Source of the DNA: a virus
Taxonomy: Duplodnaviria > Heunggongvirae > Uroviricota > Caudoviricetes
Virus record (IMG/VR): IMGVR_UViG_2737471850_000008
Span: 1 to 15,840 of that record
Reading direction: 5' to 3' (one strand)
Length of the DNA: 15,840 nt
The translations under genes and the position numbers were made by a program. This document shows, in pieces, positions 679 to 15,840 of the stretch. A model generated the notes under the pieces. The model was not told the DNA's origin and did not search any database. It saw only the letters and a list, made by a program, of their open reading frames with translations. Positions within the stretch are counted from its first letter, which is position 1. Every line of letters begins with the position of its first letter.

Positions 679-685
679 AACATTT

Positions 686-705
686 GCGCCCCTGAACAGG
701 GGCGC
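686..705. terminator. GC-rich hairpin (8-bp perfect stem GCGCCCCT/AGGGGCGC, loop GAAC) just downstream of the acyltransferase stop; candidate terminator
   Basis: Perfect inverted repeat read directly at 686-693 and 698-705. There is no immediate U-tract, so terminator function is uncertain. Confidence 0.4.
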
Positions 706-773
706 TATCCCACCACGCTGTTAAAATTTTGTTTCGTCTTACTTAGCATTTTTAAGTTGCCCATCGGAAAAAC

Positions 774-1038
774 GTCACAACCATCACGCCCCACAAAAAA
801 AACCATTAACCATCTGATTATCATGAATAAATGTTGTGATGGTAAAACCATCACAAAACGTAACGTAAACCGTCACACCCTATAAATTCAGCGAGTTATA
901 AAACAGAGTTGTGATGTTTTAAGGCCGTCACACTGTGATGCTCTTGTGATGCTCTTGTGATGGTTTTCAATATATGAATTTACTTATACATATCATATAG
1001 ATAAATGATATTTTTTAAATCTGTGATGTTTGTGACGG
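774..1038. repeat. Iteron-like cluster: 12 copies of heptamer TGTGA(T/C)G or its complement in 265 bp of AT-rich DNA, in both orientations
   Basis: Copies at 774, 782, 835, 848, 871, 910, 926, 934, 945, 956, 1022, 1031. Perfect palindrome TGTGATGG-TAAAA-CCATCACA at 835-855. Tandem 11-bp unit TGTGATGCTCT at 934-962 (one helical turn apart). Confidence 0.55.
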
Positions 1039-1213
1039 TTTTCCGATGCTCCCCCTAAATTTTTGAAAAAATTAGAAGTGGTCAGAAATCACCCTGATTT
1101 GTTGGTGGTTTTGTATATATCTCTGTTAGTGATTTGAGCATTGGTGCAGTACGTTAATGTAGGTATGGCTATAGTTCAGGCTGTGCAAAGTATTTCAGTT
1201 CCGCATCTCACGG

Positions 1214-1738
1214 TCATTCCGCGCCAGAACACATCAAATAAGGCCTTGTCACTTTCTCCCGCTTACGTGATCCCGCTGCGGCCGTTACGTTAAAAGTCAC
1301 GTACTGGCGAATTATCTGGATCAGCAACTGCGTGTTGTCCGCAATCTGGCTGTCTGTCACGCGAACCAGTATCACGTCCCAGTCAATCCCCGGCTGGCGT
1401 TCCTGCAGCTCAACGTACCCAATTCCCAGCCGTTCAAAGATGTTGATAAACCCCTCAACGGAACCGGCATCCCGCGCATTGACAAAGGCATATGCCACGC
1501 GCTTACGGAACAATGCCAGCGGTTCACCGTCAAAGCGGGTAATATCGCGGTCATACGCCAGCAGGTTCAGTAATGCCGGCGTACACGTCAGCGGATCGAA
1601 CTGATTCACTGGCCACGTAACCCAGCCGTAAACCTCAGTCCAGAACCGCCGCGCCGTTTTCAGCAGCTTCGCCGGCTCGCCTTTGTTCATCCAGGAAGGA
1701 AGCACCATCCCGGCCAGCTTTTTCAGGAACTCACTCAT
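1214..1738 (-). CDS. I: P2 gpI-like baseplate protein (tail protein I family)
   Basis: ATG at 1738 (MSEFLKK...) overlaps the stop of the upstream J-like gene by 8 nt. Segment TCTPALLNLLAYDRDITRFD resembles the recalled gpI motif (TCPANLLPWLAWAFSVDRWD). 174 aa versus about 176 aa for P2 gpI. Identification from memory, not a search. Confidence 0.6.
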   Translation of the reverse strand: MSEFLKKLAGMVLPSWMNKGEPAKLLKTARRFWTEVYGWVTWPVNQFDPLTCTPALLNLLAYDRDITRFDGEPLALFRKRVAYAFVNARDAGSVEGFINIFERLGIGYVELQERQPGIDWDVILVRVTDSQIADNTQLLIQIIRQYVTFNVTAAAGSRKREKVTRPYLMCSGAE

Positions 1739-2639
1739 TTTCAACAACAACCGCAAGCGATTTCAGGCGTGGAACACTCAGTTCGCTGGTGATATCACCC
1801 AGTGAAAAAGACAGTGATTCCGTCTGAGCAAATGTCCTGTGGATCTCCCGCCCCAGCTGAGAAAAGGAAAAACGCGAATATGGCCACGTCTTCCTGACGT
1901 CATAATCAGCATTCTCACGAAAAGCACAGCGGATCATGTTCTCCACCCCGTCCTTCAGGGTTTTCCTGTCCTCATCGCTGAAATTGGCCAGATTTTTGAC
2001 ATAAACTGTGACGGACAGATCATGAAGCGTTTCCGGCATGGGATAGCACTGCATATCATCACCGTGGCCGTGATGCCCCTGCGTGTTGATATAGTCATTG
2101 ACGGCATCCACGAACGGCGAAGAAGCCACCCCGCTGTCCAGCAACAGATACGCGTTGGCGGTACCGGGTCCCCTCGGCGCTTCATGTTCAAAGAAAATCC
2201 GGTCAATACTCAGCCCTGCAACGCCGGCAATCATCGACCGGTAAACGGCGTCAGTGTGGTAATTCCCCACCAGATTGAACTGATTGCGGCAGCGTTCGCG
2301 CAGCTCGTCATCACTTTCTTCATCCGCGCCCGGTACGGTCAGCCAGTTTTCTTCGCTGGCCACGTGGCTGATACCGTCAACGGCAACCGGCAGAATGCGG
2401 TAATATCCCGGCGCAAGGTTATATGCGCCCCCGGTGCCGGTGGCTTTTACCGGCAGTAATGCGCAGGCCGTACCGGAAGCGATCACTACATCCTCACTGG
2501 TGGCCAGCTCATACACGCGACCGTTAATGCGCTCTGTCTGGATACTGCCCCAGCCCGGTGTCCCGCTGTGCCGGGATGAACGCGATCTCGTCCATCTGGC
2601 TGTCAAATCCCTGCATTGCCCGTCTGGGCATGTTCGCAA
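1731..2639 (-). CDS. J: P2 gpJ-like baseplate protein; 5' end anomalous (TTG start in ORF track, Arg/Ser-rich first ~35 codons; possibly frameshifted or truncated)
   Basis: Central region ESDDELRERCRNQF resembles recalled P2 gpJ (ESDTDYRLRIQQAF). Size matches gpJ (302 aa). An ATG-initiated 35-codon ORF in another frame (ATG at 2631, MPRRAMQGFDSQMDEIAF...) overlaps the annotated N-terminus. Stop TGA at 1731-1733. Confidence 0.55.
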   Translation of the reverse strand: MRTCPDGQCRDLTARWTRSRSSRHSGTPGWGSIQTERINGRVYELATSEDVVIASGTACALLPVKATGTGGAYNLAPGYYRILPVAVDGISHVASEENWLTVPGADEESDDELRERCRNQFNLVGNYHTDAVYRSMIAGVAGLSIDRIFFEHEAPRGPGTANAYLLLDSGVASSPFVDAVNDYINTQGHHGHGDDMQCYPMPETLHDLSVTVYVKNLANFSDEDRKTLKDGVENMIRCAFRENADYDVRKTWPYSRFSFSQLGREIHRTFAQTESLSFSLGDITSELSVPRLKSLAVVVENE

Positions 2640-2669
2640 TGAGAAAATCGGTTAATGCCGTTAACTGGC

Positions 2670-3122
2670 TCATATCATGGCCACCGTAATGCGTTTCAGC
2701 CCTTTGATGCGGCGTACTGCCAGTGTGGACTCTGCAATCAGGCTGGAGCGGGTTTCGTCACTTTCCTGCCCCGGATGGCTCTCACGGCGACCAACAGACG
2801 CAAATTCGCCCATCAAATCAGCTTTGGCACGTGCATATACCGCTTTGCGATAACGGGCGCACAACAGATTTTCGCCGTCAATTTCCACGCCCGAAACGTC
2901 CGCCGCGCGCTCATGGCCAGCATTGCGATACCTTGCCGCCACACTGACCAGATCATCATTGATTTCGCCGGCTGCAGTCAGCAGTGCCTGGCGGATGGTG
3001 GCCGCATCAATATCGGCCGGAATGGTGCGCTGGGACTGAAAATCTTTCACGCTCAGGTCAGGCCAGAAGCCATCATTCGTCAGAGTGGCATCGTCAAAAT
3101 CAATTGAAGTTCCGCTGAACAT
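2670..3122 (-). CDS. L: P2 gpL-like head completion/stabilisation protein
   Basis: ATG at 3122 preceded by GGAG (SD); the track ORF starts at an upstream GTG (3161). C-terminal pattern ADVSGVEIDGENLLCARYRKAVYARAKADLMGEF resembles recalled gpL. It follows the M gene as in P2. Confidence 0.75.
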   Translation of the reverse strand: MFSGTSIDFDDATLTNDGFWPDLSVKDFQSQRTIPADIDAATIRQALLTAAGEINDDLVSVAARYRNAGHERAADVSGVEIDGENLLCARYRKAVYARAKADLMGEFASVGRRESHPGQESDETRSSLIAESTLAVRRIKGLKRITVAMI

Positions 3123-3215
3123 CCTGTTTCTCCGGAAAAAAGCGGGCTGGCCGGTTTCCACGGGCGATACGCTTATGCGATCCCCTCCACCGCGCCCGCT
3201 TTCGGGTCGGTAGTC

Positions 3216-3407
3216 TTACTCGCCGCGTTTTGCGGCCTGAATCTCACCTTCTTCAAACCACGCATCAGATGCGCGGCCGTCAGCAGTCTGATAGTGGATC
3301 AGATACTGATTGCAGCTGTTGGTGTACTCCGCACGGGCTTTGATATGCCCCTCTTCGCCGCTAATGGAAACTTCAACAACCTGGCCTAACTCATGCTTAA
3401 ACGACAT
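3216..3407 (-). CDS. Hypothetical 63-aa acidic protein inserted between small terminase and head completion genes
   Basis: ATG at 3407 lies 1 nt after the TGA of gene M (TGATATG coupling) and is preceded by GGGAG. No P2 gene occupies this position. No family recognised. Confidence 0.5.
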   Translation of the reverse strand: MSFKHELGQVVEVSISGEEGHIKARAEYTNSCNQYLIHYQTADGRASDAWFEEGEIQAAKRGE

Positions 3408-3408
3408 A

Positions 3409-4122
3409 TCAAACTCCCGTAGACTCTTTTTTCAGCGCCCGCAGACGCGCAGCAATACGCTGCAACATCGTGCCAACACCACATTTAGGGTCGAATCCCT
3501 TCGCCTGCTCCAGCAGTTCCTTAGCCCGGAGCAATACTTCCCTGTCTTCCGTTGCCGCTGCGCGTGGCTCTCCGTTTTCATCGCGTAGCAGGTGCAGACC
3601 GGCAAACTTCAGGTATTTGGCCTTAATGACCTCATACACATTCCAGTGCTGCGTCACGTTTTCCAGCGTACGGCCAAAATACGGCTCCACATCATGCCCC
3701 TGTACGGCTTCCGCTTCCGCCCAGGACAACACCGTATCCGCCACAAACACCGGGAACGTACTGCCGAACGCGGCCGGGGTTTCCTGCCCCCGCTGGATTG
3801 CCACATCCGCCCAGTCCAGCGCCTGGTCAAACTGGCCTGTATCAAACAGCCAGACGACACACCAGGCAAAAACAGGATTCTGTTGCACACTGTCACCTTC
3901 CAGCCAGGATTGCGCGGTTGGCATCCAGCGCGGTAACAGCACATCACGCTTAAATTCCATTCGCTCAGCGCGGCTTTCAATCGCTGCAGCTGCGGCGACA
4001 TCTTTCTCCAGCGCGACAATCTGAATATGCAGGCTGGTTTCCGTGTCCAGAGACTGCTGCTGTCGCAGTAACCGCTCCGCTTCAATTCGTGCGCTGTGGC
4101 GCTGTGCCGGTGACAGTTGCAT
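3409..4122 (-). CDS. M: P2 gpM-like terminase small (endonuclease) subunit
   Basis: 237 aa; ATG with AAGGGGGAT SD; positioned between N and L as in P2; sequence character consistent with the gpM family (from memory). Confidence 0.8.
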   Translation of the reverse strand: MQLSPAQRHSARIEAERLLRQQQSLDTETSLHIQIVALEKDVAAAAAIESRAERMEFKRDVLLPRWMPTAQSWLEGDSVQQNPVFAWCVVWLFDTGQFDQALDWADVAIQRGQETPAAFGSTFPVFVADTVLSWAEAEAVQGHDVEPYFGRTLENVTQHWNVYEVIKAKYLKFAGLHLLRDENGEPRAAATEDREVLLRAKELLEQAKGFDPKCGVGTMLQRIAARLRALKKESTGV

Positions 4123-4132
4123 TAAATCCCCC

Positions 4133-5161
4133 TTACTCGCCTGCCGGAGGCGCGACAGGTGCCCCGATAGCTACCGCACTTTCATCAAACGCGGCGTACA
4201 GTTCCGGATACTCAACCGCATAACCTTCGTTACGCAGGTATTTGTTTTCGTACTGTTTACGGTCTTCCACAAACTCCGCTTTACGCTGACGCGTGCCGCG
4301 CTGGGTGTAGATGTGCAGGTTTGGCAGTGTCGTAACAATCATGCGTTTGCCTGGCATAAACGGCGGTACGTAAGCCGTGCGGCCGGCGATGCTGTCAGAC
4401 AGCAGTTGCGCGGCGATCTTCTCCGTGGGTTTGTCTGCTTTCTGATACAGACGGAACGACTCCGCCGCGACCAGATCAGCGCCGACAAGAACCACCAGGC
4501 GTGGATCATTACGGTACTGTGCCGGGATTTTGGCGTTGATAAGGTCGGAGGCCATTGCATCCAGCGACACGTAATCGCCTTTCCCGTCACCGTCAAGCAC
4601 CACCGCATCAGTGATGATCTGCTGGCCGTCCTTCCACTCTTTGACGATCTGATGCCAGCCCTTGTTCACATCCTCGCCGTTCGGGTTGGTTTCCGCGTTC
4701 GTGGTCTCGGCCACTTTGGTACCGTTAAAGCCGATACGCAGCATATCCAGCGCAAACGCCTGATTGGTGAACTCCTGAACACGCTGGAAAAACTCGTTTT
4801 CATCGCCGGCGTTCGCCCAGACAGAAAGCAACTGCCAGGTGAGTGCGGCGCATGAGTCGGTCTCGACCAGACTGTAATCATTACCACTCACGCCCACTTT
4901 CTTACGGAAGCGGCCATCCAGTACACGCCCGGTATACAGGCCAGAGCTGCCAACCGGAACCACCTGCCCCTGCAGCTGATCGACATCGGCAACGGTGATC
5001 AGATTCAGGAAATCAGACTGCTCCATCAGCGCATTGCGCAGCTGGGTTTCTTTGGGGTCGGTGAGTGCAAACCAGCGTTCGCTGTCGGTCGCCCCGTAGG
5101 ATTCACGCAGCCCGGTGTGATACTGAAGCAGAAACTCACGGGCTTTCGCATTTAATTGCAT
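4133..5161 (-). CDS. N: P2 gpN-like major capsid protein
   Basis: 342 aa; ATG with AAGGA SD; C-terminal region (DPRLVVLVGADL...YVPPFMPGK...) resembles recalled P2 N (DPDLVVIVGRQLL...VPYFPAD); lies in O-N-M order. Confidence 0.85.
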   Translation of the reverse strand: MQLNAKAREFLLQYHTGLRESYGATDSERWFALTDPKETQLRNALMEQSDFLNLITVADVDQLQGQVVPVGSSGLYTGRVLDGRFRKKVGVSGNDYSLVETDSCAALTWQLLSVWANAGDENEFFQRVQEFTNQAFALDMLRIGFNGTKVAETTNAETNPNGEDVNKGWHQIVKEWKDGQQIITDAVVLDGDGKGDYVSLDAMASDLINAKIPAQYRNDPRLVVLVGADLVAAESFRLYQKADKPTEKIAAQLLSDSIAGRTAYVPPFMPGKRMIVTTLPNLHIYTQRGTRQRKAEFVEDRKQYENKYLRNEGYAVEYPELYAAFDESAVAIGAPVAPPAGE

Positions 5162-5195
5162 ATTCTTTTTCCTTAAAGAAAAGTAGTGTTATCCC

Positions 5196-6035
5196 TTACA
5201 GGAAATTGAAGCCTTTTTTGCCCTTGCTGAATTTCTTGTCCGGCAGTTGAGTAACTTTGTTATTCAGCTTGCTGAAGTTTTTCACCAGCTCCGGCAGGTT
5301 CCCCACCAGACGCGCAAAATCTTCGGTGTCCACTACTTCCTTCACGGTGTCCACATCGTCCTGCACATCAGATACCGCTTCTTCCGCCTCACCCAGACGG
5401 GTTTCAATAGCAGATACGCGCTTATCAATGGCATCCAGCGCTTCAGCCAGCGCCTGTAAGGCATCAGACTGTGAAGGTTCCTGCTCCGGGGTCTGCTCCG
5501 GTTCTTCGATACTGAAAAAATGGCGCCAGCCCTTTTTCGCTGTCTTTGACATTCCCTTTTCCTTTTTAAATTCCCTGACTTCATCAAACGCCAGCGGCTT
5601 GTATGGTCCGATGCGTTTTCCCCTGGTGCGGCTGAAACGTAACCGTGTGGTGCTTACCCCGGCCGGACTGTCAGTAATGGCCAGTCCCTCAAGATAGGTT
5701 TTCCCGGTATTTCTGAAATTGCCGTCCGGTGTAAACTCCGGTGATAAAAATAAAAGCTGACCGTCTGCATTTGCCTGTAGCAATGAAATCGCCGGACAGA
5801 GGCGGGCATATAAACGAAGAATACCTTCATCATCCCGCTCGGCTTTTACTTCCAGCACCTCCCCCATATTCCCGAAATTACGGGAATGTTCCGGCCATAA
5901 CAGCGCGGTATACAAAGAGGGGTCATATAATTCAGCGGCATCAAGCAACCATTGTTCTTCAATAAATCGCTTATCAACCGTTTCACCCGCAGTGGCGATA
6001 CAAATCCAGTTTGTTGCCAGTTGTGAACCTGACAT
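5196..6035 (-). CDS. O: P2 gpO-like capsid scaffolding protein/protease
   Basis: ATG at 6035 (MSGSQLATNW...) preceded by GGAGG; the track ORF extends to 6095. N-terminal WICIATAGETVDKRFI...GEVLEVKAE resembles recalled gpO (FFRIGVEGDTCDGRVI...GDVAELKAE). Acidic C-terminal half typical of scaffolds. Confidence 0.8.
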   Translation of the reverse strand: MSGSQLATNWICIATAGETVDKRFIEEQWLLDAAELYDPSLYTALLWPEHSRNFGNMGEVLEVKAERDDEGILRLYARLCPAISLLQANADGQLLFLSPEFTPDGNFRNTGKTYLEGLAITDSPAGVSTTRLRFSRTRGKRIGPYKPLAFDEVREFKKEKGMSKTAKKGWRHFFSIEEPEQTPEQEPSQSDALQALAEALDAIDKRVSAIETRLGEAEEAVSDVQDDVDTVKEVVDTEDFARLVGNLPELVKNFSKLNNKVTQLPDKKFSKGKKGFNFL

Positions 6036-6163
6036 ATTGCCTCCGTTCATGCTGCGGTTTTCAGTATCGCCAATAAAATTAACCGCCGCATTCACTTCAT
6101 TTCGGATATAGGCTATTAGCCGAACACATCAGAAATAAAGCGGGATTTAATATACAAACGCCC
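6036..6163. promoter_or_regulatory. Divergent intergenic region between O and P; expected location of late promoters
   Basis: Position between divergently transcribed head operons, as for P2 PO/PP. No canonical TGT-N12-ACA Ogr box was found by eye, so promoter elements are not defined. Confidence 0.35.
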
Positions 6164-7960
6164 GTGCATAATGTGTGCATGGCTAAATATTCAGAAGAAT
6201 TAAAAGGCGTTGCGCGGGCGCTTTATTTAAAACGCTATACCCCGCAGGAAATTGCCAGCGAACTTAATCTGCCTAACAGACGCATTGTCTATTACTGGGC
6301 GGAGAAATATTGCTGGGCGGAATTACTCAGTCATGAATCCACCGAAGATGCATTAAACCGTCGCATTCAGTCACTGACATTACGTGAAGGGAAATCGGAG
6401 CTGGAGCTGCGGGAGCTGGACAGTCTCGTTTCTCACCTGGTGAAACTACGTGCACAGCACAATAAGCATCAGGAAAAGCTGGCAGAAATTAAACACAGTG
6501 AAAATGATGCGCCGGCGCGTCAGTCCGGTGGCGACGAAAAGCCCCGGAAACGTGGCAAGTACAAAAAGAACGACATCAGCGGACTGACACAGGAAGATTT
6601 TGACCGGTTCGCGCTGGAGCACCTTTTCGGTTACCAGAAACACCTTCGCGCTAATCTTCATCAGCAAATCAGGAACATCCTGAAAAGCCGCCAGATTGGT
6701 GCAACCTGGTATTTCTCAATAGAAGCCTTTGAGAATGCGGTCATGACAGGCGATCCGCAAATCTTCCTGTCCGCATCAAAGGCTCAGGCGGAAGTATTCC
6801 GCAGCTATATCGTCAACATTGCGGAGCAGTATTTCGGCGTGGAGCTGACGGGAAACCCCATCCGCCTCTCCAACGGCGCGGAGATGCGATTCCTGTCCAC
6901 CAACAAGAACACCGCCCAGTCATACAGCGGCCATCTGTACTGCGATGAATATTTCTGGGTACCCAACTTTGCAAAATTAAACGAAGTGGCCAGCGCGATG
7001 GCCACACACGACAAATGGCGAACCACCTACTTTTCCACCCCCAGCAGCAAAACGCACCAGGCGTACCCGTTCTGGACTGGTGAAGAATGGAAGCGCGGTG
7101 ACAAAAAACGCGCGCGCGTACAATTTCCCACGGAGAAGGAGCTGCGCGACGGTGGACGGTTATGTCCTGATGGGCAGTGGCGCTACATCATCACAATGGA
7201 AGACGCGATCGCAGGCGGGTTTAATCTCGCCAGCATCGGGAAGCTGCGCAACCGCTACAACCGCGACACTTTCAACATGCTGTATATGTGCGTGTTCGTG
7301 GACAGCAAGGACAGCGTATTTTCGTTCTCTCACGTAGAACGCTGCTGTGTAGATCCGGATATCTGGGAGGATCATGACGAAAACCTGCCCCGGCCGTTCG
7401 GCAACCGTGAAGTGTGGGCGGGTTATGACCCGGCTCGCAGCGGAGACACCTCCACCTTCGTGATCATCGCGCCGCCGATAGTGGCCGGCGAAAAATTTCG
7501 GGTACTGCGTGTATTCCACTGGCAGGGGATGAACTGGAAGTGGCAGGCGGCACAGATTAAGAAGCTGTTTGGCCAGTACAACATGACCTACATCGGCATT
7601 GATATCACTGGACTGGGTAGCGGTGTCTTTGAAGACGTTCAGCACTTTGCCATGCGTCAGGCAGTGGCGATCCGCTACGGCGTCGAGACCAAAAATCGTC
7701 TGGTGATGAAGATGATCGACGTTATCGAAGACGGCCGCGTGGAATGGGATAAGGAGAAGACCGAAATCGCCGCCAGCTTTATGACCATCCGCCGTACGTC
7801 CACGGCCAGCGGCAACGCAATGACTTTCGTCGCCGATCGCACAGCAGAAACAGGACACGCAGACAGTTTCTGGGCTATCGCCCATGCCATTGACAACGAG
7901 CCATTAAACTTTGAAAACCAGCGAAAATCACGCTGGGGTAACTTAGGGAAAGCAGCATGA
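6164..7960 (+). CDS. P: P2 gpP-like terminase large (ATPase) subunit
   Basis: About 593-598 aa; the track start is GTG at 6164 and the first ATG is at 6179 (MAKYSEELKG). Size and position match P2 P. Stop overlaps the Q start (ATGA at 7957-7960). Confidence 0.85.
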   Translation: MHNVCMAKYSEELKGVARALYLKRYTPQEIASELNLPNRRIVYYWAEKYCWAELLSHESTEDALNRRIQSLTLREGKSELELRELDSLVSHLVKLRAQHNKHQEKLAEIKHSENDAPARQSGGDEKPRKRGKYKKNDISGLTQEDFDRFALEHLFGYQKHLRANLHQQIRNILKSRQIGATWYFSIEAFENAVMTGDPQIFLSASKAQAEVFRSYIVNIAEQYFGVELTGNPIRLSNGAEMRFLSTNKNTAQSYSGHLYCDEYFWVPNFAKLNEVASAMATHDKWRTTYFSTPSSKTHQAYPFWTGEEWKRGDKKRARVQFPTEKELRDGGRLCPDGQWRYIITMEDAIAGGFNLASIGKLRNRYNRDTFNMLYMCVFVDSKDSVFSFSHVERCCVDPDIWEDHDENLPRPFGNREVWAGYDPARSGDTSTFVIIAPPIVAGEKFRVLRVFHWQGMNWKWQAAQIKKLFGQYNMTYIGIDITGLGSGVFEDVQHFAMRQAVAIRYGVETKNRLVMKMIDVIEDGRVEWDKEKTEIAASFMTIRRTSTASGNAMTFVADRTAETGHADSFWAIAHAIDNEPLNFENQRKSRWGNLGKAA

Positions 7961-8976
7961 AAAAACGGAAATACAGGGAACGCCGCACCGCCAGCAAGCC
8001 GCGCCATATGAGCCTTATTACCCTGGGTAAACCGGAACCCATTCTGACGACCGGCACAAACTACACAGACGTCTGGTATGACAATGAAGCGGAACACTGG
8101 ACGCTCCCGATTGACCGGCTGGCGCTGGCGCAACTGGTGAACCTGAACGCGCAGCACGGCGGTGTGCTGTATGCCCGTCGCAATATGGTGACGGCAAACT
8201 ATAAAGACGGCGGACTGACGCATGAACAGCTTGGTGCAGCCGTGTTCGACTGGCTGACCTTCGGTGATGTGGCCATTCTGAAAGTGCGTAACGGCTGGGG
8301 GGATGTGGTGGCACTGTACCCGCTGCCGGCACTCTATACCCGCCAGCGTAAGACCGGGGAGTTTGTGGTACTGCAGCAGGGTGAACCGATGATTTATCCG
8401 CCTGAAGATATTATTTTTCTCAGGCAGTACGATCCGCAACAGGCGATTTATGGTCTGCCGGATTATATCAGCGGTATCCATTCTGCCCTGCTTAACGGTG
8501 AGGCAACAATTTTTCGTCGGCGTTACTACCATAACGGCGGACACACAGGTGGCATGATCTACTGTAACGACCCAAATATGACTGATGAAGTGGAAGAAGA
8601 AATTATTCAGAAGCTGGAGCAGTCAAAGGGGATCGGGAACTTCAGCACCATGTTTGTGAACATCCCCAAAGGCGATCCGGACGGCATCAAATTTATCCCG
8701 ATTGGGGATATCAGCGCCAAAGATGAGTTTCAGAACATCAAGAGCATCAGCGCCCAGGACGTACTGACCGCGCATCGATTCCCGGCAGGACTGGCGGGGA
8801 TTATCCCGACGAACGGCGCAGTAATGGGAGATGTTGAGAAAGCGTCCAAAACCTACCGCAAAGCAGAAATTTTGCCCATTCAGCGCATGTTTACCGCCGC
8901 AGTGGAACAGGAAAGTGATGTACCGCCCCACCTGTACCTTAATTTCCTGAAAGACAGTGAGCTGGAAGGTGATTAA
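7957..8976 (+). CDS. Q: P2 gpQ-like portal protein
   Basis: 339 aa versus about 344 aa for P2 Q; translationally coupled to P; family identification from memory. Confidence 0.85.
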   Translation: MKKRKYRERRTASKPRHMSLITLGKPEPILTTGTNYTDVWYDNEAEHWTLPIDRLALAQLVNLNAQHGGVLYARRNMVTANYKDGGLTHEQLGAAVFDWLTFGDVAILKVRNGWGDVVALYPLPALYTRQRKTGEFVVLQQGEPMIYPPEDIIFLRQYDPQQAIYGLPDYISGIHSALLNGEATIFRRRYYHNGGHTGGMIYCNDPNMTDEVEEEIIQKLEQSKGIGNFSTMFVNIPKGDPDGIKFIPIGDISAKDEFQNIKSISAQDVLTAHRFPAGLAGIIPTNGAVMGDVEKASKTYRKAEILPIQRMFTAAVEQESDVPPHLYLNFLKDSELEGD

Positions 8977-9029
8977 TGTTCGCAAAAAGGCTAAAATATC
9001 ATCGTTTTCCAACTTCCGGAGCGATGGAT

Positions 9030-9305
9030 ATGCGGGTAATGAAGGTTTACTGTCCGGTATGTGAGGCAAGGGCTGTTATCAAAAAAACAGCCCGAAAACA
9101 CAAGGAACTGTCGGATTTATATTGCGCGTGTACCGATGTTGAATGTGGTCACACTTTTGTGATGAATATGACATTCTCACATACCATCAGCCCCAGCGCC
9201 AAATCCAGCGATGCGTTGATCGCCACTATCTGTAACAGCCTTGATATCCAGCAAAAGCAGCTGATGTTAAAGTTTCTGAGTCAGGACGGCACTGCTGCCG
9301 CATAG
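9030..9305 (+). CDS. ogr: Ogr/Delta-family zinc-finger late transcription activator, with a C-terminal extension relative to P2 Ogr
   Basis: CPVC...(22 aa)...CACTDVEC four-cysteine arrangement, as in Ogr/Delta. GGAG 9 nt upstream of the ATG at 9030; alternative starts at 9024 and 9042; the track ORF begins at 8976. Confidence 0.75.
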   Translation: MRVMKVYCPVCEARAVIKKTARKHKELSDLYCACTDVECGHTFVMNMTFSHTISPSAKSSDALIATICNSLDIQQKQLMLKFLSQDGTAAA

Positions 9306-9306
9306 A

Positions 9307-9337
9307 AAAAAGCACCGCTACCGGTGCTTTTATTTTC
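9307..9337 (+). terminator. Rho-independent terminator after ogr
   Basis: Stem AGCACCG / CGGTGCT (9311-9317 and 9322-9328), loop CTAC, followed by TTTTATTTT; A-run upstream. Confidence 0.75.
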
Positions 9338-9383
9338 TGAGATGTAACAGATTCCCATCTATCAACGTCGATGAATGACCAAG

Positions 9384-9444
9384 TGATTAATAGTCCCCCC
9401 CTCCTAAACATGATATTATCTTTCCAAATTTTGGGAGGCATCTT
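9384..9444 (+). promoter_or_regulatory. Putative promoter and RBS of the glycosyltransferase moron, containing a C7 homopolymer
   Basis: TATTAT (9414-9419) as candidate -10; TTAATA/TGATTA about 21-24 bp upstream as candidate -35; C7 run at 9395-9401 lies between them; strong SD GGGAGG at 9432-9437. Confidence 0.3.
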
Positions 9445-10164
9445 ATGTTAATAGTCTCAGTTCTTAAATGTAGTAAAGAGTTTACCCCTAAACACGCCCA
9501 ATGGCTTCATCGTCAGTTCAAAGATATTCCATCTATATGTTTAACCGATGCAGATAATATTCCTGGAGTTAACACAACCCCTTTGCTTTATAACTGGCCG
9601 GGATGGTGGTCTAAAATTGAACTATTTAATCCTAATCACCCAGTCCTTGGAGACCAAGATTTACTCTATTTTGACGTAGATGTTGTGGTCACGGGAGATA
9701 TTCATATTTTCGAAGGTGCGAAGAAATTTACAATGCTTCGGGAGTTTAACCATGCCTCAAGAGTAAACTCATCAATAATGATGATTCCGGCGTCGATTAA
9801 AAAGACGATTTGGGAACAATTCATTATTGATCCTGAGAAAATTATGCGCAATTGTCAGACTGAAGACAAATGGGGTGATCAGGGATTTCTCGGTAGCATC
9901 ATAAAACCAGCCCTATGGCAGGATATCATTCCTGGCTCAATTGTTAGTTATAAATGTGACATCGCCACCCCCTCGATGATTGGCTTCAATGCAAATTTAG
10001 CCTCTGAGGCTGCGACAGGGAAAGTCCCTGATAATGTGGCGGTTGTTTGCTTTCATGGCAGTCCACGCCCCTGGCGTACTGGTTTTGATTGGGTTCCTTC
10101 GTTTTCCCTGCGGGATACTCTGTACGGTAAATTAAAGAACTTTAAAATAAGAATGAAGCAATAA
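9445..10164 (+). CDS. GT8-family-like (glycogenin/LgtC/RfaJ-type, DxD) glycosyltransferase; AT-rich moron
   Basis: Motifs in GT8 order and spacing: DxD (LLYFDVDVVV), NSS (cf. FNSGV), WGDQGFL (cf. GGDQGILN), CFHGSPRPW (cf. HFxGxxKPW). AT-rich compared with the flanking phage genes. Strong SD and ATG. Confidence 0.6.
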   Translation: MLIVSVLKCSKEFTPKHAQWLHRQFKDIPSICLTDADNIPGVNTTPLLYNWPGWWSKIELFNPNHPVLGDQDLLYFDVDVVVTGDIHIFEGAKKFTMLREFNHASRVNSSIMMIPASIKKTIWEQFIIDPEKIMRNCQTEDKWGDQGFLGSIIKPALWQDIIPGSIVSYKCDIATPSMIGFNANLASEAATGKVPDNVAVVCFHGSPRPWRTGFDWVPSFSLRDTLYGKLKNFKIRMKQ

Positions 10165-10201
10165 AGATAACGCCCCTATTGCTTCAATGTTCGCTCCTTC
10201 C

Positions 10202-10219
10202 CCTAACAATAAAGTTAGG
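10202..10219. terminator. Hairpin CCTAAC-AATAAA-GTTAGG between the convergent glycosyltransferase and primase-helicase genes; possible bidirectional terminator
   Basis: 6-bp perfect inverted repeat read directly; AT-rich stem, so weak. Confidence 0.3.
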
Positions 10220-10232
10220 CACTAGTGAACCG

Positions 10233-12890
10233 TTACTTTTCCCGGCCAAATATCCAGCAGCGGAATGTTTCCGGCATCCGTTGCATATCCCCTTTACCAC
10301 GATTATGGCGCTCACTTACCGCGCTGCGCGTGGTGCTTTGTCTGATAAACCGGCGCTCATTGCCGTTTTTAAGCAGCTTTTTAATTTCCGTTAACGTGAA
10401 CGGAATACGCTGCCGGTGTGCTGCGGCGACCTCTTCCATGTGATTGAAATTAACCGCGATTTCATTTTCATCTGATGAATGATTGATGCCATAAGGTGCC
10501 AGTTCATCCAAGTAATCAAACAGCTCCCAGAACTCCTGCACCAGAGGATGATCCTTTTTAAGTGCCTGACAACGTTCAACGGCCAGCGCGGTGATGGCTT
10601 CACGCGTTTTTTCTATACGTTCAACCGGCACCGGTACAACAAGTGCAAGCGCCTCCAGCAAGCCCACAAGCTGCGCGTGATTCTTTGCAATACGGATATG
10701 GCGAATACTGCTATTAGACTCCAGCTCATTCCTAGCTCGCTCGTACCCCCTGCCGAACGTCTGCATGATTTCTTTTTCGCGCATGGTGGCCAGTAATGTG
10801 AATCCGGATACCTGGCTAACGGGGAGTTGTTCAAGTCGTTCTGCAGCGTGGCGCGTCTGAATGGACTGGCCGCGCTTGTCGGTATAGATGTGGATGATAC
10901 GCTCCAGAAACGCCTTGCTGCCGTCTGTGTCGGCATTTTGCGCTATCACAATACTTCCCCTGAACGGCGGCTCATACGTCTCGTTATTGTTCGATTTGAT
11001 ACCCACGGCGCGGGAGGCACGACCGTTATACAGTGATTTCAGCTCGTCCCAGTCAAAAGCGCGTTGCTTGGCGTTATCGGTAGTACGGTCGCCCTCAATC
11101 AGCACAACCGGCAGATTACCGACCTGGGCGAAGTTACGGCCACGCGCGGCGGCGGTAGATTTAGATGGGTCAAACCCTTCGTATTCCTCACGGCCGGCGA
11201 GCTTCCAGAGAAATTCTATCAGCGTGGATTTACCTGTCCCCGGCTCGCCCACGATTTCCAGAAACGGAAATGACTTGTCACGCTCGCGGATTTGTTCGGC
11301 AAACAGCGACCCCAGCCAGAACGCCAGCGCCACATACCCTTTTTCACCAAATGCCGTCCAGATATCGTCTACCCAACCCGTAGTAAACTCGTTCAGCTTC
11401 GGATTCAGATCCAGCGCCGGCGTGAGGCTCAGGCTCTTAACGCTGGCACTGTTGATTTCGAAGTAATCCTCGTCGTTCATCTCATACAGCCGGCCATCGC
11501 AAACGGCCACGCGGTTAAACAACCAGGCGGCATAATCCTTGTTATAGCCGATGAAATTCTGCGTCTTTACCTCTTTGATTTCAGGGAGGCGCATCTGGAT
11601 GAACTTATCCAGCTGTTTGGTGCTGCCTGTGTACACCGCCCCTTTGGCGATGTGCAGCAGACGCTTTTTGAACTCGGCGGAGCTGGTGAGCTGATTAGCC
11701 GTGAAAGTATCTTTCACGGCTGGCCGGTTAGGCATACTGACTTTCACGTAATACCAGGACTCGTCCGTAGGTTCAGACCGCTGAAAGTAAAGCGGCGTCA
11801 GCCAGCAGTTAGCTATTTCGGTCACGCCGCCTGACTCTTTAACCGCCCGTTCTTTGGCCTCCCACTCCATCACCACTTCGGTACCGGTATTGGTGATGCG
11901 CTCATAGGCTCGCATATACCTGTCCAGATCCAGCTCAAACCAGTACATGCGGGAGTTATGCTCAAAGTAGAACGAGTGCCACTCGTTATGCTGATGCATG
12001 AGCAGCGCTTTCTCAGTCGGGCTTTTTGCCAGAAGGAGATCGCCATAGTAGCGATAATTTTTAATGTCCGACTTACTGAACCGGTTACGTAACAACAGGT
12101 CATTCCAGTCCAGCGATGCCGATGATTTCACCGGCTGCGCGGCACGAGTTTTCCATCCTGCAGCATCACTACGGGCAGCGAACGCCAGTGTGTGCTTTGT
12201 GCCGGCTTTATCGCCGTCAAACGCCCATACAAGACGTGGACGTGGTTTTTCACCCAGTTCTTTGGCCAGCGTATCCAGTGCGGCCAGCGGATAGTTGTTA
12301 CTGCTCAGTGTGGCAACTGCAGGTAACCCTACCTGGCACAGACTCAGCGCGTTGAAGATTCCCTCAGTGATCCAGATTTCGTTCACTTCCTGCAGGTTGA
12401 TAAAGGGAGGAACCCACCAGTGACCGACATAGCTTCCCCTGATGTTGGCTTTCTGCTTACCGAAGCGCTGCGGCTGGTCAATGATGCGCTCCCATGTTGC
12501 ACCGCATGACAGCGAAAATCTGACCGTTGCCGACCCCATGCCATCTTTCACGAATGCACCCTGGGTAAAACAGCCTTTTAATGGCTCAGTCTCCAGCCCT
12601 CTGGCCTCGCGCAGATACGCCTCAGCTACTGCATGGGGGTTATCTTCTGTGGTCTGGTAACGTTTTGACCAGTCTTCAAAGATATCCGGATACAGCTCTT
12701 TCACGACAATCTGATGTGCGCAGTTATTTTCACGGCCACATTTCAGAATCCAGGGCTTTTCTATGCTGGTAAATAATTCGCGCTTACGACAGGCAGGGCA
12801 AACGCCCTGCTGCAAATACTTATCCCGCTCTTTAAATTCAAAGTCCCGAACAAGACGGCGCACAACGTCCTGTTGTATCGTTTCGTTCAT
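10233..12890 (-). CDS. Primase-helicase of the P4 alpha type (zinc-binding N-terminus, Toprim primase, P-loop NTPase)
   Basis: ATG at 12890 (MNETIQQ); the track ORF starts at TTG 12926. CPACRK...(16 aa)...CGRENNC zinc motif; Toprim-like ITEG and FDGDKAG; Walker A GEPGTGKS and Walker B-like VVLIEGD. Confidence 0.8.
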   Translation of the reverse strand: MNETIQQDVVRRLVRDFEFKERDKYLQQGVCPACRKRELFTSIEKPWILKCGRENNCAHQIVVKELYPDIFEDWSKRYQTTEDNPHAVAEAYLREARGLETEPLKGCFTQGAFVKDGMGSATVRFSLSCGATWERIIDQPQRFGKQKANIRGSYVGHWWVPPFINLQEVNEIWITEGIFNALSLCQVGLPAVATLSSNNYPLAALDTLAKELGEKPRPRLVWAFDGDKAGTKHTLAFAARSDAAGWKTRAAQPVKSSASLDWNDLLLRNRFSKSDIKNYRYYGDLLLAKSPTEKALLMHQHNEWHSFYFEHNSRMYWFELDLDRYMRAYERITNTGTEVVMEWEAKERAVKESGGVTEIANCWLTPLYFQRSEPTDESWYYVKVSMPNRPAVKDTFTANQLTSSAEFKKRLLHIAKGAVYTGSTKQLDKFIQMRLPEIKEVKTQNFIGYNKDYAAWLFNRVAVCDGRLYEMNDEDYFEINSASVKSLSLTPALDLNPKLNEFTTGWVDDIWTAFGEKGYVALAFWLGSLFAEQIRERDKSFPFLEIVGEPGTGKSTLIEFLWKLAGREEYEGFDPSKSTAAARGRNFAQVGNLPVVLIEGDRTTDNAKQRAFDWDELKSLYNGRASRAVGIKSNNNETYEPPFRGSIVIAQNADTDGSKAFLERIIHIYTDKRGQSIQTRHAAERLEQLPVSQVSGFTLLATMREKEIMQTFGRGYERARNELESNSSIRHIRIAKNHAQLVGLLEALALVVPVPVERIEKTREAITALAVERCQALKKDHPLVQEFWELFDYLDELAPYGINHSSDENEIAVNFNHMEEVAAAHRQRIPFTLTEIKKLLKNGNERRFIRQSTTRSAVSERHNRGKGDMQRMPETFRCWIFGREK

Positions 12891-12929
12891 AAATAATCCA
12901 GATGTGAAATAATGGGTAAAAGGCAAAAA

Positions 12930-13148
12930 CTATATTCTGTACTGCTTGTTATATCGCTCATGTGTCATTAGTTCCCAGCTTCTGCCCTTATCCTTACTCA
13001 GTAATCGCCAGTGATAAGAAACATGAACAGAGAAATAATGTTTTGGCTTAATAACCTGATATACCTTTTTGCCGTTGTAATATTCTGTCAGCACTGAAAA
13101 TGCCTTGTGAATGACACTTTCACTTGCATGAGAGGTCACTGTAAGCAT
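12930..13148 (-). CDS. Hypothetical 72-aa protein
   Basis: ORF between the exonuclease and primase genes with ATG 2 nt after the exonuclease stop; weak SD; AT-rich; no recognised motifs. Could instead be non-coding regulatory DNA. Confidence 0.35.
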   Translation of the reverse strand: MLTVTSHASESVIHKAFSVLTEYYNGKKVYQVIKPKHYFSVHVSYHWRLLSKDKGRSWELMTHERYNKQYRI

Positions 13149-13150
13149 CG

Positions 13151-13720
13151 TTATTTCACACTGGCTATTTTTACAAGATACATCCAGACATAAGAAACAA
13201 CTTTAGCCTGATGAATGGCATCATATAAAGCGTGATGTTTAACACCATCAAACTTAATAATATTACGAACATTCAGCCCAAGTGTTTTTGACAGTTCAAC
13301 AACCGTTCTTACATCACGGTCATTCCAGTAGTACCAAAGTGGATCGGCAAACCCGCATTTCTCTGATGCATTACGTAAAATAACATTGTCGAACGCTGCA
13401 CTATTCCCCCATACCTGTACTTTAGATGGGTCAGAATGCTCAGTAATAAAAGCTTCCAGATTAGCTAACGTCAGAGGCAAGTCCAGACAATCGTCATTAA
13501 GCAGCTCGCTACGCGCTTCGGCATCCTGACGCATCCACCATAATACGGTTTCTGACCCCATAGTGAGACCGTGGCCTACACAGCTGCCCAGGCTGACACG
13601 TTGATAAAACTGTTCACCCATTTCGCCAGTTTCAGGGTCAAAGAATACAGCACCGATAGAAGCAATCGCAGAAGTCGGTTTATTATCCATTGTTTCAAGG
13701 TCAATCATTAAATGTTTCAT
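13151..13720 (-). CDS. DEDDh-family (DnaQ/RNase T-like) 3'-5' exonuclease
   Basis: Exo I MIDLETMD (D-x-E), Exo II WGNSAAFD, Exo III HHALYDAIH (H-x4-D). ATG with AAGGAA SD. AT-rich. Confidence 0.8.
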   Translation of the reverse strand: MKHLMIDLETMDNKPTSAIASIGAVFFDPETGEMGEQFYQRVSLGSCVGHGLTMGSETVLWWMRQDAEARSELLNDDCLDLPLTLANLEAFITEHSDPSKVQVWGNSAAFDNVILRNASEKCGFADPLWYYWNDRDVRTVVELSKTLGLNVRNIIKFDGVKHHALYDAIHQAKVVSYVWMYLVKIASVK

Positions 13721-13729
13721 ATCGGTTCC

Positions 13730-14065
13730 TTAACGTTGGGAAGCTGCAACAGATTTAAGATGCGAGTTATTACTTTTTAACGCTGTGGTAGCCAGCGACA
13801 TAAGACCGGAAATGTTATTTTCAGTTGGTATATTTCCGCCAAATACCATAAGCGTGATTTTGTGCAGTTCTTCAAAATCATCACTATCATTATTAAAGCG
13901 AGCAGTGGAGGTTATACCCTCAAGGCATTTTGCAAGCTGAATGTTTAATTCCATTAACTGCAAGCCATCGCTATGTACAGAGAATGTTTCTTTATCAATG
14001 GTTTTTGCCTGAGCGTGATAGTTTTGCAACAGACTACGAATCAGCGTGGCATATTTAGTCTTCAT
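13730..14065 (-). CDS. Hypothetical protein (about 111 aa) in the early operon
   Basis: ATG at 14065 with GGGGAT SD (track start is TTG at 14077); 26 bp downstream of cox; AT-rich; no recognised domain. Confidence 0.5.
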   Translation of the reverse strand: MKTKYATLIRSLLQNYHAQAKTIDKETFSVHSDGLQLMELNIQLAKCLEGITSTARFNNDSDDFEELHKITLMVFGGNIPTENNISGLMSLATTALKSNNSHLKSVAASQR

Positions 14066-14091
14066 GATAATCCCCAATAATATTTAGTTTA

Positions 14092-14373
14092 CTAACGAGC
14101 ACTTTTATCTTTCGTGAATAAACGGTTCTTCCAGTCATGCCATTCAGGCGGGGCAATTTGAGCCAAATGAATGGCATAAGCATCCCATTCCCCCCGATGG
14201 ATATAGATTTCCCCACCTTTTTTTGATGGATTTAGAGGGTCTTTCATGCGGATTACCGGCAGTTTTCCAGCCGTGGCCATTTTGCGAATTGCAGCAGGCG
14301 TTTTGCCTATATATTCGGCAAAAAGCTCAGGGGTCACCAACTCTGAAAGCGCCTTTTCTGCTGGTTCCTTCAT
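14092..14373 (-). CDS. cox: P2 Cox-like excisionase / transcriptional regulator
   Basis: 93 aa; segment ELFAEYIGKTPAAIRKMATAGKLPVIRMKDP resembles recalled P2 Cox (QEFAKLIGKSTGAVRRMIDKGKLPVIDMTDP). Divergent from C. SD AAGGAT. Confidence 0.8.
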   Translation of the reverse strand: MKEPAEKALSELVTPELFAEYIGKTPAAIRKMATAGKLPVIRMKDPLNPSKKGGEIYIHRGEWDAYAIHLAQIAPPEWHDWKNRLFTKDKSAR

Positions 14374-14481
14374 CTGTGGTATCCTTCGTTAGTTTGGGTT
14401 CCTAGGGCGCTTTAAGTCGTTCTAGGGTTCTTTTGTCAAGGTTCTTTTGTAAGAACCAACAATAGTTGCGATACAAGAACC
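14374..14481. promoter_or_regulatory. cox-C switch region with candidate operator repeats (face-to-face Pe/Pc promoters expected by analogy with P2)
   Basis: Direct repeats TTC(C)TAGGG at 14399-14407 and 14420-14427, about 21 bp apart. Tandem GGTTCTTTTGT at 14426-14436 and 14440-14450. Inverted GGTTCTT...AAGAACC at 14440-14457, and another AAGAACC at 14475-14481. Confidence 0.6.
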
Positions 14482-14781
14482 ATGTCAAGAAATTATGCGG
14501 AGAAACTCCGGCAGATCCGGAAAGCTGAAGGGTTAACTCAAAAAGATTTTTCAGAGCTTACTGGGGTAGCTCTTGGAACAATAAAAAAGTACGAAACTGG
14601 CCATCAGCCAGCTCGTGCAGAAGTCTTAGAAAGTGTTATAGAGGTACATATGTTTGAAAAATATACACTCTGGTTAATGACAGATAAGACGGCACCAATT
14701 GCGGGGCAGGTGTCCCCGTCTCTCTCCCCTGATGGGCAAGACAACATAACATCATCCCGTTCCACCCGGAAAATTGGCTAA
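14482..14781 (+). CDS. C: P2 C-like immunity repressor
   Basis: 99 aa (same as P2 C). LTQKDFSELTGVALGTIKKYETG helix-turn-helix and KYTLWLMTDKTAPIAGQVSP closely resemble recalled P2 C (KYTLWFMTNQIAPESGQIAP). Confidence 0.85.
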   Translation: MSRNYAEKLRQIRKAEGLTQKDFSELTGVALGTIKKYETGHQPARAEVLESVIEVHMFEKYTLWLMTDKTAPIAGQVSPSLSPDGQDNITSSRSTRKIG

Positions 14782-14847
14782 ACATCTGGTTTTTCTATGC
14801 GTTAGCGCAAAATTTACATAATGATTCATACATCGGAGGGCTTCGCT

Positions 14848-15840
14848 ATGTCGATTAAGAAGCTTGATGATGGTCGTTTTGAAGTGGACGTTAGACCGCG
14901 CGGAACCTCAGGAAGAAGGATTCGACGCAAATTTGACAGAAAGGCGGAAGCACAGGCATACGAGCGGTATGTACTGACAAACTTTCACGATAAAGAATGG
15001 CAGGATAAACCCGCAGACAGGAGGCTTGTATCCGAGTTAATTTCTTTATGGTGGAGCTACCATGGAAAGAATCACAACTATGGTGACTCATATAAAAAGC
15101 GTTTGGAAAAAATCAACCGAGAAATGGCGGAACCCAGAGTGTACGAGCTTACCCGCAACTTTCTGATGAAATATCGTGCAGAACGACTTCATAGTGGAGT
15201 ATCTGCTGGCACGGTAAACAGGGATTTCTGTTCCATGTCCAGCATGTTCAGTTTGCTGATAGATATGGAAGAATTTCATCACGAAAACCCGTTTCGCGCC
15301 GTGAAGAAGTTACGTCTGGAAAACACAGAAATGTCATTTCTGTCCGAAGAAGAGATCCACCATTTGCTGAATGCCCTTACAGGGGATGATCGCAGAGTTG
15401 TCGTTCTTTGCCTGAATACAGGAGCACGATGGGGTGAAGCCAGTAATCTTAAAGCTGAAAACGTGATAAGTAACCGTGTGACCTTTGTTAAGACCAAAAC
15501 CGGCCCAGCTCGTACTGTTCCGATATCGAAGGAAATCGCGGACTACATCCTTACACGCAAATCGGGGAAATTGTTCGATACCAACTATGAGCGAGTTCGC
15601 GATGTTCTTCGTAAGATTAAGCCAGACTTGCCGAAAGGTCAGGCACTGCATGTTTTACGCCATACCTTCGCAACACATTTCATGATCAACGGCGGGAATA
15701 TCATCACGCTACAGCGTATTTTGGGTCATACAACAATCGAGCAAACAATGACATATGCTCACTTCGCCCCAGATTATCTGACTGATGCCATACGATTTAA
15801 CCCTATGCGTGGGAGTGTCCACATAATGTCCACCGACTAG
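14848..15840 (+). CDS. int: P2-type tyrosine integrase
   Basis: ATG at 14848 with GGAGGG SD (track ORF starts at 14821). MSIKKLDDGRFEVDVRPRGTSGRRIRRKFDRK closely resembles recalled P2 Int (MAIKKLDDGRYEVDIRP...RIRRKFDKK). C-terminal HVLRHTFA...H...Y catalytic-type residues. Stop TAG at the window end. Confidence 0.9.
   Translation: MSIKKLDDGRFEVDVRPRGTSGRRIRRKFDRKAEAQAYERYVLTNFHDKEWQDKPADRRLVSELISLWWSYHGKNHNYGDSYKKRLEKINREMAEPRVYELTRNFLMKYRAERLHSGVSAGTVNRDFCSMSSMFSLLIDMEEFHHENPFRAVKKLRLENTEMSFLSEEEIHHLLNALTGDDRRVVVLCLNTGARWGEASNLKAENVISNRVTFVKTKTGPARTVPISKEIADYILTRKSGKLFDTNYERVRDVLRKIKPDLPKGQALHVLRHTFATHFMINGGNIITLQRILGHTTIEQTMTYAHFAPDYLTDAIRFNPMRGSVHIMSTD

Follow-up and report, generated by a model that had tools for sequence, protein, structure and literature searches.

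A P2-type head module without tail or lysis genes in Escherichia coli, very probably the inside of a doubly deleted Evevirus-like prophage

Genes of the window and its full-length counterpart

The DNA considered here, which we call the window, is the whole 15,840-nucleotide stretch of the IMG/VR virus record IMGVR_UViG_2737471850_000008, in which a P2-type head module stands next to replication, switch and integration genes. An earlier reading made from the letters alone (the sequence-only reading) proposed in the first place a head-only, capsid-encoding satellite built of P2 and P4 parts and, as a fallback, a deletion remnant of a prophage. The fallback is what comparison with full-length copies of the same prophage shows, base by base, and we consider it very probable that the window represents the interior of a defective prophage, derived by two deletions from an Evevirus-like parent of ~29 kb (Peduoviridae), and not a satellite.

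Gene calls combined mechanical open reading frames (ORFs) with Pfam, PHROG and NCBIfam searches of the window proteins (Table 1). The P2-type head module, integrase, C/Cox switch, Ogr/Delta activator and primase-helicase recognised by the sequence-only reading were all recovered by Pfam and PHROG, the Pfam matches for the head genes all lying above the curated cut-offs. The head genes are divergent, Q-P in one direction and O-N-M-L in the other, in the same order as in Escherichia phage ESSI2_ev239 (hereafter ev239) and in Cronobacter phage ESSI-2. Holin, endolysin, spanin, sheath, tube, tape-measure and fibre genes are absent from the window, in agreement with what that reading had noted of lysis and tail genes.

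A megablast search of the window against 5,426 complete Escherichia coli genomes found 12 in which 100% of it aligns, at 99.9% identity, as three collinear blocks spread over 28.36 kb. The best match, NZ_CP162185.1 (region 1162294-1191400), served as the reference full-length copy and is called L001 below; it is flanked by raiA and pheL, and its annotation is that of a complete P2-family prophage. By direct blastn, window 1-1303 corresponds to L001 4001-5303 at 100% identity, window 1300-2544 to L001 10957-12201, and window 2543-15840 to L001 19062-32358. Because the window maps to L001 in these three blocks, it is the full prophage minus two internal segments. Of the head, replication and regulatory proteins that it retains, each either is identical to its counterpart in the full-length prophage or departs from it at one residue.

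The limits of the element were located by k-mer comparison of both flanks, which revealed a 16-bp direct repeat, CCTTCGGGCGCGTTTT, on either side of the prophage (L001 3377-3392 and 32448-32463). Both copies of this attachment (att) core lie outside the window, that of attL ~90 bp past the window end and just before pheL. The sequence-only reading had let the element begin at position 1214; window 1-1213 is also prophage DNA (the O-acetyltransferase cargo gene, or moron, followed by non-coding sequence), and the att cores place the true ends beyond both ends of the window. Measured in this way, the full prophage is ~29.07 kb long and the window form ~16.55 kb. The att core CCTTCGGGCGCGTTTT makes up the stem and T-run of the raiA terminator, and since integration duplicates the core, raiA and the prophage end each keep a terminator.

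Table 1. Features of the window, in order of position (coordinates are those of the window).
Feature	Position	Strand	Matches and remarks
O-acetyltransferase moron, 3' part	1-678	+	Pfam Acyl_transf_3; adjoins attR; G+C 0.37
Non-coding prophage DNA	679-1299	.	In the full-length prophage the putative cohesive-end site (cos) lies ~200 bp further on
I', truncated gpI-like baseplate gene	1214-1738	-	Pfam Tail_P2_I; PHROG 1228
'J, baseplate J without its first 124 codons and own start	1731-2544	-	PHROG 6
R', gpR-like tail terminator stub, 43 codons	2524-2673	-	
gpL, head completion / head-tail adaptor, intact	2670-3122	-	Pfam Phage_GPL 6.9e-46; identical to L001
Conserved 63-aa phage ORF between M and L, function unassigned	3216-3407	-	PHROG 8618, 1.2e-35
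gpM, small terminase, intact	3409-4122	-	Pfam Phage_term_smal 1.1e-38; identical to L001
P2-family major capsid, intact	4133-5161	-	Pfam Phage_cap_P2 1.1e-97; identical to L001
GPO scaffold/protease, intact	5196-6035	-	Pfam Phage_GPO 1.6e-33; identical to L001
gpP, large terminase, intact	6179-7960	+	Pfam Terminase_5, Terminase_6N, Terminase_6C; one substitution vs L001
gpQ, portal, intact	7957-8976	+	Pfam Phage_portal; identical to L001
Ogr/Delta zinc-finger late activator	8976-9305	+	Pfam Ogr_Delta 1.1e-15
Glycosyltransferase-like moron, 239 aa	9445-10164	+	PHROG 1962 glycosyltransferase 5.8e-81; low G+C
Toprim primase + P-loop helicase	10233-12890	-	Pfam Toprim_2, Toprim_3, DUF5906; PHROG 1139 full length
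ParE-like ORF, 72 aa	12930-13148	-	Pfam ParE_like (PF24732) 1.3e-16
3'-5' exonuclease, Rv2179c-like	13151-13720	-	Pfam 1.1e-67
Conserved 111-aa phage ORF, function unassigned	13730-14065	-	PHROG 7058
Cox, excisionase / lytic-switch repressor	14092-14373	-	Pfam Phage_Cox 7.7e-25
C-type helix-turn-helix immunity repressor, divergent from cox	14482-14781	+	Pfam HTH_3, HTH_31
Tyrosine integrase, ends on last window base	14848-15840	+	Pfam Int_N, Phage_integrase

The two deletions and the packaging site

The two missing segments, which we call deletions A and B, together amount to 12.5 kb and account for the loss of the putative cos, of the lysis cassette and of almost the entire tail module. Deletion A removed 5,657 bp (L001 5304-10960) and left a junction at window 1300-1303 with a 4-bp microhomology, CGTA. 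Lost with it were the cos-bearing non-coding stretch, a baseplate gene of 1.7 kb, two genes for hypothetical tail proteins, those for fibre assembly and for the tail fibre, and the 3' end of the I-like gene. The latter encodes 195 aa in L001 and has lost its last 50 codons in the window, where I' consists of 145 native codons (1304-1738) followed by 29 foreign codons read through across junction A, and matches PHROG 1228 over profile positions 2-144 of 193 only.

Deletion B removed 6,862 bp (L001 12202-19063) and left a junction at window 2543-2544 with a 2-bp microhomology, TA. It took the 5' end of J, DUF2590, the tape measure, DUF6890 and the tail chaperone; a LysC-like gene, an Rz-like spanin, an M15 endolysin and the holin; and the tube, the sheath (DUF2586), a gpS-like gene and most of the gpR-like gene. 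J spans L001 11388-12572 (394 codons), and what is left of it, 'J, aligns to PHROG 6 from profile position 194 onward. The gpR-like gene (L001 18710-19192; PF06891, P2_Phage_GpR) survives as the 43 codons of R', which run out of frame into J and stop after 6 more codons to give a 49-aa product. The statement of the sequence-only reading that every frame is intact except the J 5' end is therefore wrong, given the 50 of 195 codons lost from the I-like gene and the R' stub, and the 30-bp gap that it placed between L and J is an artefact of mechanical ORFs drawn across junction B, the R' stub lying between the two genes. A promoter and terminator scan around the junctions gave nothing above the shuffled expectation.

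The loss of the packaging site deserves separate attention. In the ESSI-2 record the first letters are GCGGGTGCGGTGTAG and the last GGCGGGTGCGGTGTAG, a terminal repeat typical of a cohesive-end genome, and both ends of the ev239 contig map to this same point. An exact 16-mer shared by the ESSI-2 record end and Yersinia phage vB_YenM_324 has a single occurrence in the full-length E. coli prophage, which falls within deletion A (L001 5503-5518); around it a block of ~28 nt is conserved across the three genera, while the flanks have diverged. From the record termini and this conservation, we regard the block as the probable cos of the group. It reads GCAGGCGGGTGCGGTGTAG(C/T)GCCGTTT and was located at L001 5495-5525, at L023 1-15 and 28750-28765, and at L024 27803-27818; none of the records compared annotates a cos for the ESSI-2, Evevirus and YenM_324 group. 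The block is absent from the window with 3 mismatches allowed over a 23-mer. The cos of the ESSI-2/Evevirus group differs from that of P2, whose 19-mer likewise has no match in the window at up to 3 mismatches. Since the putative cos is deleted, an element with terminase, portal and capsid genes would be unable to package itself.

Two peculiarities of the ev239 record (L006, NC_049392.1 / LR597637.1) may be mentioned in passing. Its positions 29127-29203 read CTGTCTCTTATACACATCTCCGAGCCCACGAGAC, an index, ATCTCGTATGCCGTCTTCTGCTTG and poly-A, which we take to be an untrimmed Illumina Nextera adapter, and it opens with 116 nt (positions 1-116) that are 83% identical to the fibre region elsewhere.

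Sister copies, breakpoints and the remaining genes

A 1.55-kb query covering both junctions gave no match across either of them in the 5,426 complete genomes. The junction proteins and gpL were then looked up by exact sequence in a public assembly index, in which counts are of blocks: the chimeric I' (174 aa) was present in 36 blocks and the chimeric R' (49 aa) in 38. The two agree in contig-size profile and in neighbours, and in every case lie beside the acyltransferase, raiA and bamD. The exact gpL protein of the prophage occurs in 845 blocks; from it, nearly all of the places displayed continue into the gpR, gpS, sheath, tube, holin, endolysin, tape measure, J, I and fibre genes. The window differs from the closest full-length copy, GCA_018052165, by one single-nucleotide polymorphism (SNP) across the shared ~10.6 kb, and window-type copies differ from one another by ~3 SNPs. 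The window form is thus real, of one origin, vertically inherited and a small minority of the copies, and the recurrent, conserved L-J architecture that would have favoured a satellite was not encountered, the 36-38 near-identical blocks all representing one locus. The identity of the head genes to those of the parent would be explained by the deletions being very recent.

The sequence-only reading had named two outcomes that would count against a satellite, namely tail and lysis genes directly to the left of base 1, or a solitary arrangement with obvious pseudogenes in related copies. The second is largely what we find, as there is one lineage only and related copies do carry obvious pseudogenes; the first is not, since contigs with the window arrangement read acyltransferase, raiA and bamD on that side and show neither lysis nor tail genes there.

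Sister copies at the same raiA-pheL locus, compared at >=99.9% identity, display a series of further damage. In PK5/CUPF12, a single 14.2-kb deletion fuses the baseplate gene to the capsid gene. In HZ13, an ISKpn26 insertion comes with the loss of 9.8 kb, and int contains an internal stop; PSJ-12/23CRST024 has a frameshift in int and four deletions, which affect tail, capsid, terminase-portal and primase. YPE10 has undergone two deletions and has a primase gene interrupted by an internal stop; E89 lacks 21 kb and carries IS100 within int; BY63/BY68 and I3 show IS1-associated losses. Among draft genomes there are also an I-fibre fusion, a capsid gene that is truncated and a further insertion-sequence (IS) insertion. 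In all, at least seven other deletion or IS-disrupted forms exist besides the window form, which is the only one to have kept the whole head module. Because the head genes are lost in most of the sister copies, we see no indication that a head-only form has been selected. With an intact copy and at least eight independently damaged derivatives in related E. coli, the locus offers a clean and well-dated case of prophage decay caught early.

The breakpoints themselves may hold additional information. Eleven microhomology deletion junctions could be mapped in the near-identical copies, with endpoints at window 1300-1303 and 2543-2544 and at L001 5165, 5303, 7053, 7246, 10960, 12201, 19063, 20696, 21455, 21897, 23881, 24598, 28249 and 29203. 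TA lies within the microhomology at 9 of the 11, compared with 5.1% of random junctions with >=2 bp of microhomology, and at 8 of them a G stands <=2 nt upstream of the TA at both ends, compared with 1.1% expected. The excess of G-TA remains at a binomial P < 1e-8 after collapsing events with shared breakpoints, for a motif that was defined post hoc, and the information is limited to four bases, G-(G/A)-T-A, mostly on the plus strand of the window.

Several endpoints were reused to the base: L001 5165 by YPE10 and PSJ-12, L001 12201 by deletion B of the window and YPE10, L001 19063 by deletion B and PSJ-12, and L001 28249 by E89 and PSJ-12. The large PSJ-12 deletion equals, base-exactly, the YPE10 deletion plus deletion B of the window. 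Common ancestry was rejected as the reason for this reuse, as the window, PSJ-12 and YPE10 carry private SNPs and the window groups with a full-length copy. Because homologous recombination among the variants cannot give the combined deletion, at least one of the exact recurrences is independent.

These features might be taken to indicate that the deletions arose from sequence-directed break-and-rejoin at 5'-G-(G/A)-T-A-3', at sites reused across lineages, instead of from random microhomology, a proposal that we find rather unlikely. No motif was found beyond 4 nt around the breakpoints, which argues against a classical site-specific recombinase. The cause may be four-base staggered cleavage by a type II topoisomerase; it may equally be template switching at the tetranucleotide priming sites of the prophage primase-helicase during abortive in-situ replication, or perhaps a nuclease of unspecified kind. 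The classical gyrase consensus fits the G-R-T-A breakpoints poorly, and gyrase as their source was set aside as unproven, not as disproven. On gyrase, the text of the Topo-Seq paper gives 'cleavage before G' and offers no usable central motif beyond it. Should a defined mechanism lie behind the signature and the reuse of endpoints, it would bear on how prophages get inactivated.

The remaining genes call for a few remarks. The Ogr/Delta gene begins on the portal stop codon in its 109-aa form, many gene calls taking a later start (91 aa), and it lies directly 3' of the portal gene; P2 has ogr at the end of the tail operon. The 72-aa ORF at 12930-13148, which the sequence-only reading had assigned to Ogr, is ParE-like by Pfam. 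It sits between the exonuclease and primase genes with no obvious antitoxin partner, and is annotated in some RefSeq copies and omitted in others (for example STK78-E). The glycosyltransferase-like moron occupies the place of two small unrelated ORFs in ev239 and has no Pfam or PADLOC match. Together, the two low-G+C cargo genes, glycosyltransferase-like and O-acetyltransferase, suggest lysogenic conversion of a surface polysaccharide. PADLOC returned no defence family for the ORFs without assigned function, apart from one weak generic DEDDh match; the window has no tRNA, an Rfam scan gave no family, and a PDB sequence search with the primase-helicase gave no match.

Interpretation and comparison with known systems

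In the scenario that we favour, the Evevirus-like parent prophage sat in the raiA terminator, with raiA on one side and pheL on the other, and two illegitimate, microhomology-mediated deletions shortened it from ~29.07 kb to ~16.55 kb. Deletion B took the whole lysis cassette and, of the tail module, everything from gpR as far as the 5' third of J; deletion A took the rest of the baseplate and fibre module as well as the putative cos. The remnant left behind is a repressed element that keeps an intact C/Cox switch, integrase, primase-helicase, Ogr, head and terminase genes and the two surface-modification morons. By analogy with P2-family biology, such a remnant probably still confers immunity and serotype-type conversion; it may still excise and replicate when derepressed, and it could assemble procapsids. 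From the modules that are missing we infer that it would be unable to lyse the cell, to make or attach tails, or to be cut and packaged by its own terminase.

Certain facts sit less comfortably with this scenario and need to be set against it. All genes for head, terminase, replication and switch functions are intact, and the form is stably inherited in ~36-38 assemblies with few internal SNPs, in which respect a functional element would look alike. The position of cos comes from record termini and conservation, not from experiment on this phage. In addition, a helper phage or a second copy of the deleted segments might reside elsewhere in the genome of the source strain.

One may suppose that the remnant has been domesticated, with host selection acting on immunity, on the morons or on the ParE-like gene, and with the head genes as passengers. 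This reading is compatible with, rather than opposed to, that of a deletion remnant; it would account for the repressor, both morons and the ParE-like ORF being kept in nearly all of the decay forms and for the persistence of the lineage. We nonetheless doubt it, as divergence is far too low for selection to be measured, recency alone predicts equal retention, and BY63 and I3 have lost most of the candidate genes.

A capsid-forming, helper-dependent satellite, which would replicate, build P2-type heads and package itself while borrowing tails and lysis as do those phage-inducible chromosomal islands that form capsids (cf-PICIs), appears to us very improbable. Its appeal is easily understood: head module, terminases, portal, Ogr, primase-helicase, Cox/C and integrase are all intact, the form has been passed on stably in the ~36-38 assemblies, and tail-less satellites that encode capsids exist in the cf-PICIs (10.1101/2025.02.11.637232). 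Against it stands, above all, the deletion of the conserved cos block, which leaves the terminase without a target in cis. Moreover, the boundaries of the putative satellite are microhomology junctions inside genes, with R', 'J and I' as stubs; it goes back to one origin at one locus and shares ~99.9% identity with full-length prophages; and heads are not preserved in the other deletion forms of the prophage. At 16.5 kb the element would have 57% of the parental length and its dimer 114%, from which an adverse effect on packaging might also be expected. For these reasons we do not retain what the sequence-only reading had put in its headline.

That both junctions result from wrong joins in a single draft assembly, the strain in truth having a full prophage, has a negligible probability in our estimate, for although neither is seen in any complete RefSeq genome, the chimeric proteins recur in 36 and 38 independent blocks of public assemblies, among them a 151-kb metagenome scaffold that runs through the element into the chromosome on both sides, and window-type copies differ by a few SNPs.

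A lesson of more general use is that a head-only gene set is insufficient to call a capsid-forming satellite; such calls also need checks for stubs at module boundaries, for a packaging site and for full-length siblings.

Among phage records, the closest to the window is ev239 (Evevirus ev239, Peduoviridae, 29.2 kb), with 90.8% identity over 75% of the window. The two share the order of head, tail (in the parent), lysis, primase and switch genes; the head, terminase, portal, Ogr, primase, exonuclease and Cox proteins match; and the O-acetyltransferase moron is common to both, lying beside attP in ev239. The window differs in having another integrase, immunity and att module and the glycosyltransferase moron, and the different integrase module explains why attP of ev239 lacks the 16-bp att core. 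The type of the parent is that of a real phage, four isolates of ESSI-2-related phages having been obtained as temperate coliphages from infant faecal viromes (PMC6969025). ESSI-2 itself (a Cronobacter phage, Seongnamvirus) and vB_YenM_324 (Yersinia) have a P2-type head module and a tail and lysis order common to both and to the parent, with an identical cos core, GGCGGGTGCGGTGTAG; in contrast to the window element, they are complete phages and have a gpA-type nicking replication protein in place of the Toprim primase-helicase. Head gene arrangement, nucleotide similarity and the combination of C/Cox, integrase and Ogr thus place the element with the Evevirus-like Peduoviridae, while of what a functional member of that family would need, the complete tail and lysis modules have been reduced to R', 'J and I' and cos is gone.

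The resemblance to cf-PICIs is one of gene content, with capsid, portal and terminase genes and no tail or lysis genes. The families of cf-PICIs are widespread and conserved, have a packaging specificity of their own and show clean gene boundaries (see also 10.1101/2025.02.11.637232), whereas the window element has no packaging site, has gene stubs at its junctions and is of single, recent origin. The shared presence of capsid and packaging genes without tail or lysis genes is superficial, being here the outcome of deletion; the packaging signal that a cf-PICI-like element would own has been deleted with cos; and instead of a recurrent architecture that respects genes, there is one locus with identical junctions inside genes.

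With P4 the element has in common a primase-helicase in Toprim-then-Walker-A order and a zinc-finger activator of the Ogr/Delta type. The likeness of the primase to P4 alpha is marginal (BLASTP E 0.002-0.003, in two short collinear segments of ~60-100 aa at the Toprim and Walker A regions), and the protein is native to Evevirus phages, so that P2/P4 hybrid, as the sequence-only reading had it, does not seem a fitting name for the element. A P4-like element would be expected to carry sid, psu and helper-control genes (epsilon, delta) and no capsid of its own; the window encodes a full capsid module, and among its Pfam, PHROG and NCBIfam matches there are no sid, psu, epsilon or P4-type integrase families. 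P4 keeps cos and encodes no capsid, and the window element does the reverse.

The element finds its natural company among the cryptic and defective prophages of E. coli, in which, as here, internal deletions and IS hits accumulate while immunity and moron genes survive. A defective Evevirus-like prophage is an already known kind of thing; it differs from other members of that company in having been caught unusually early, with its remaining genes still identical to those of the functional parent.

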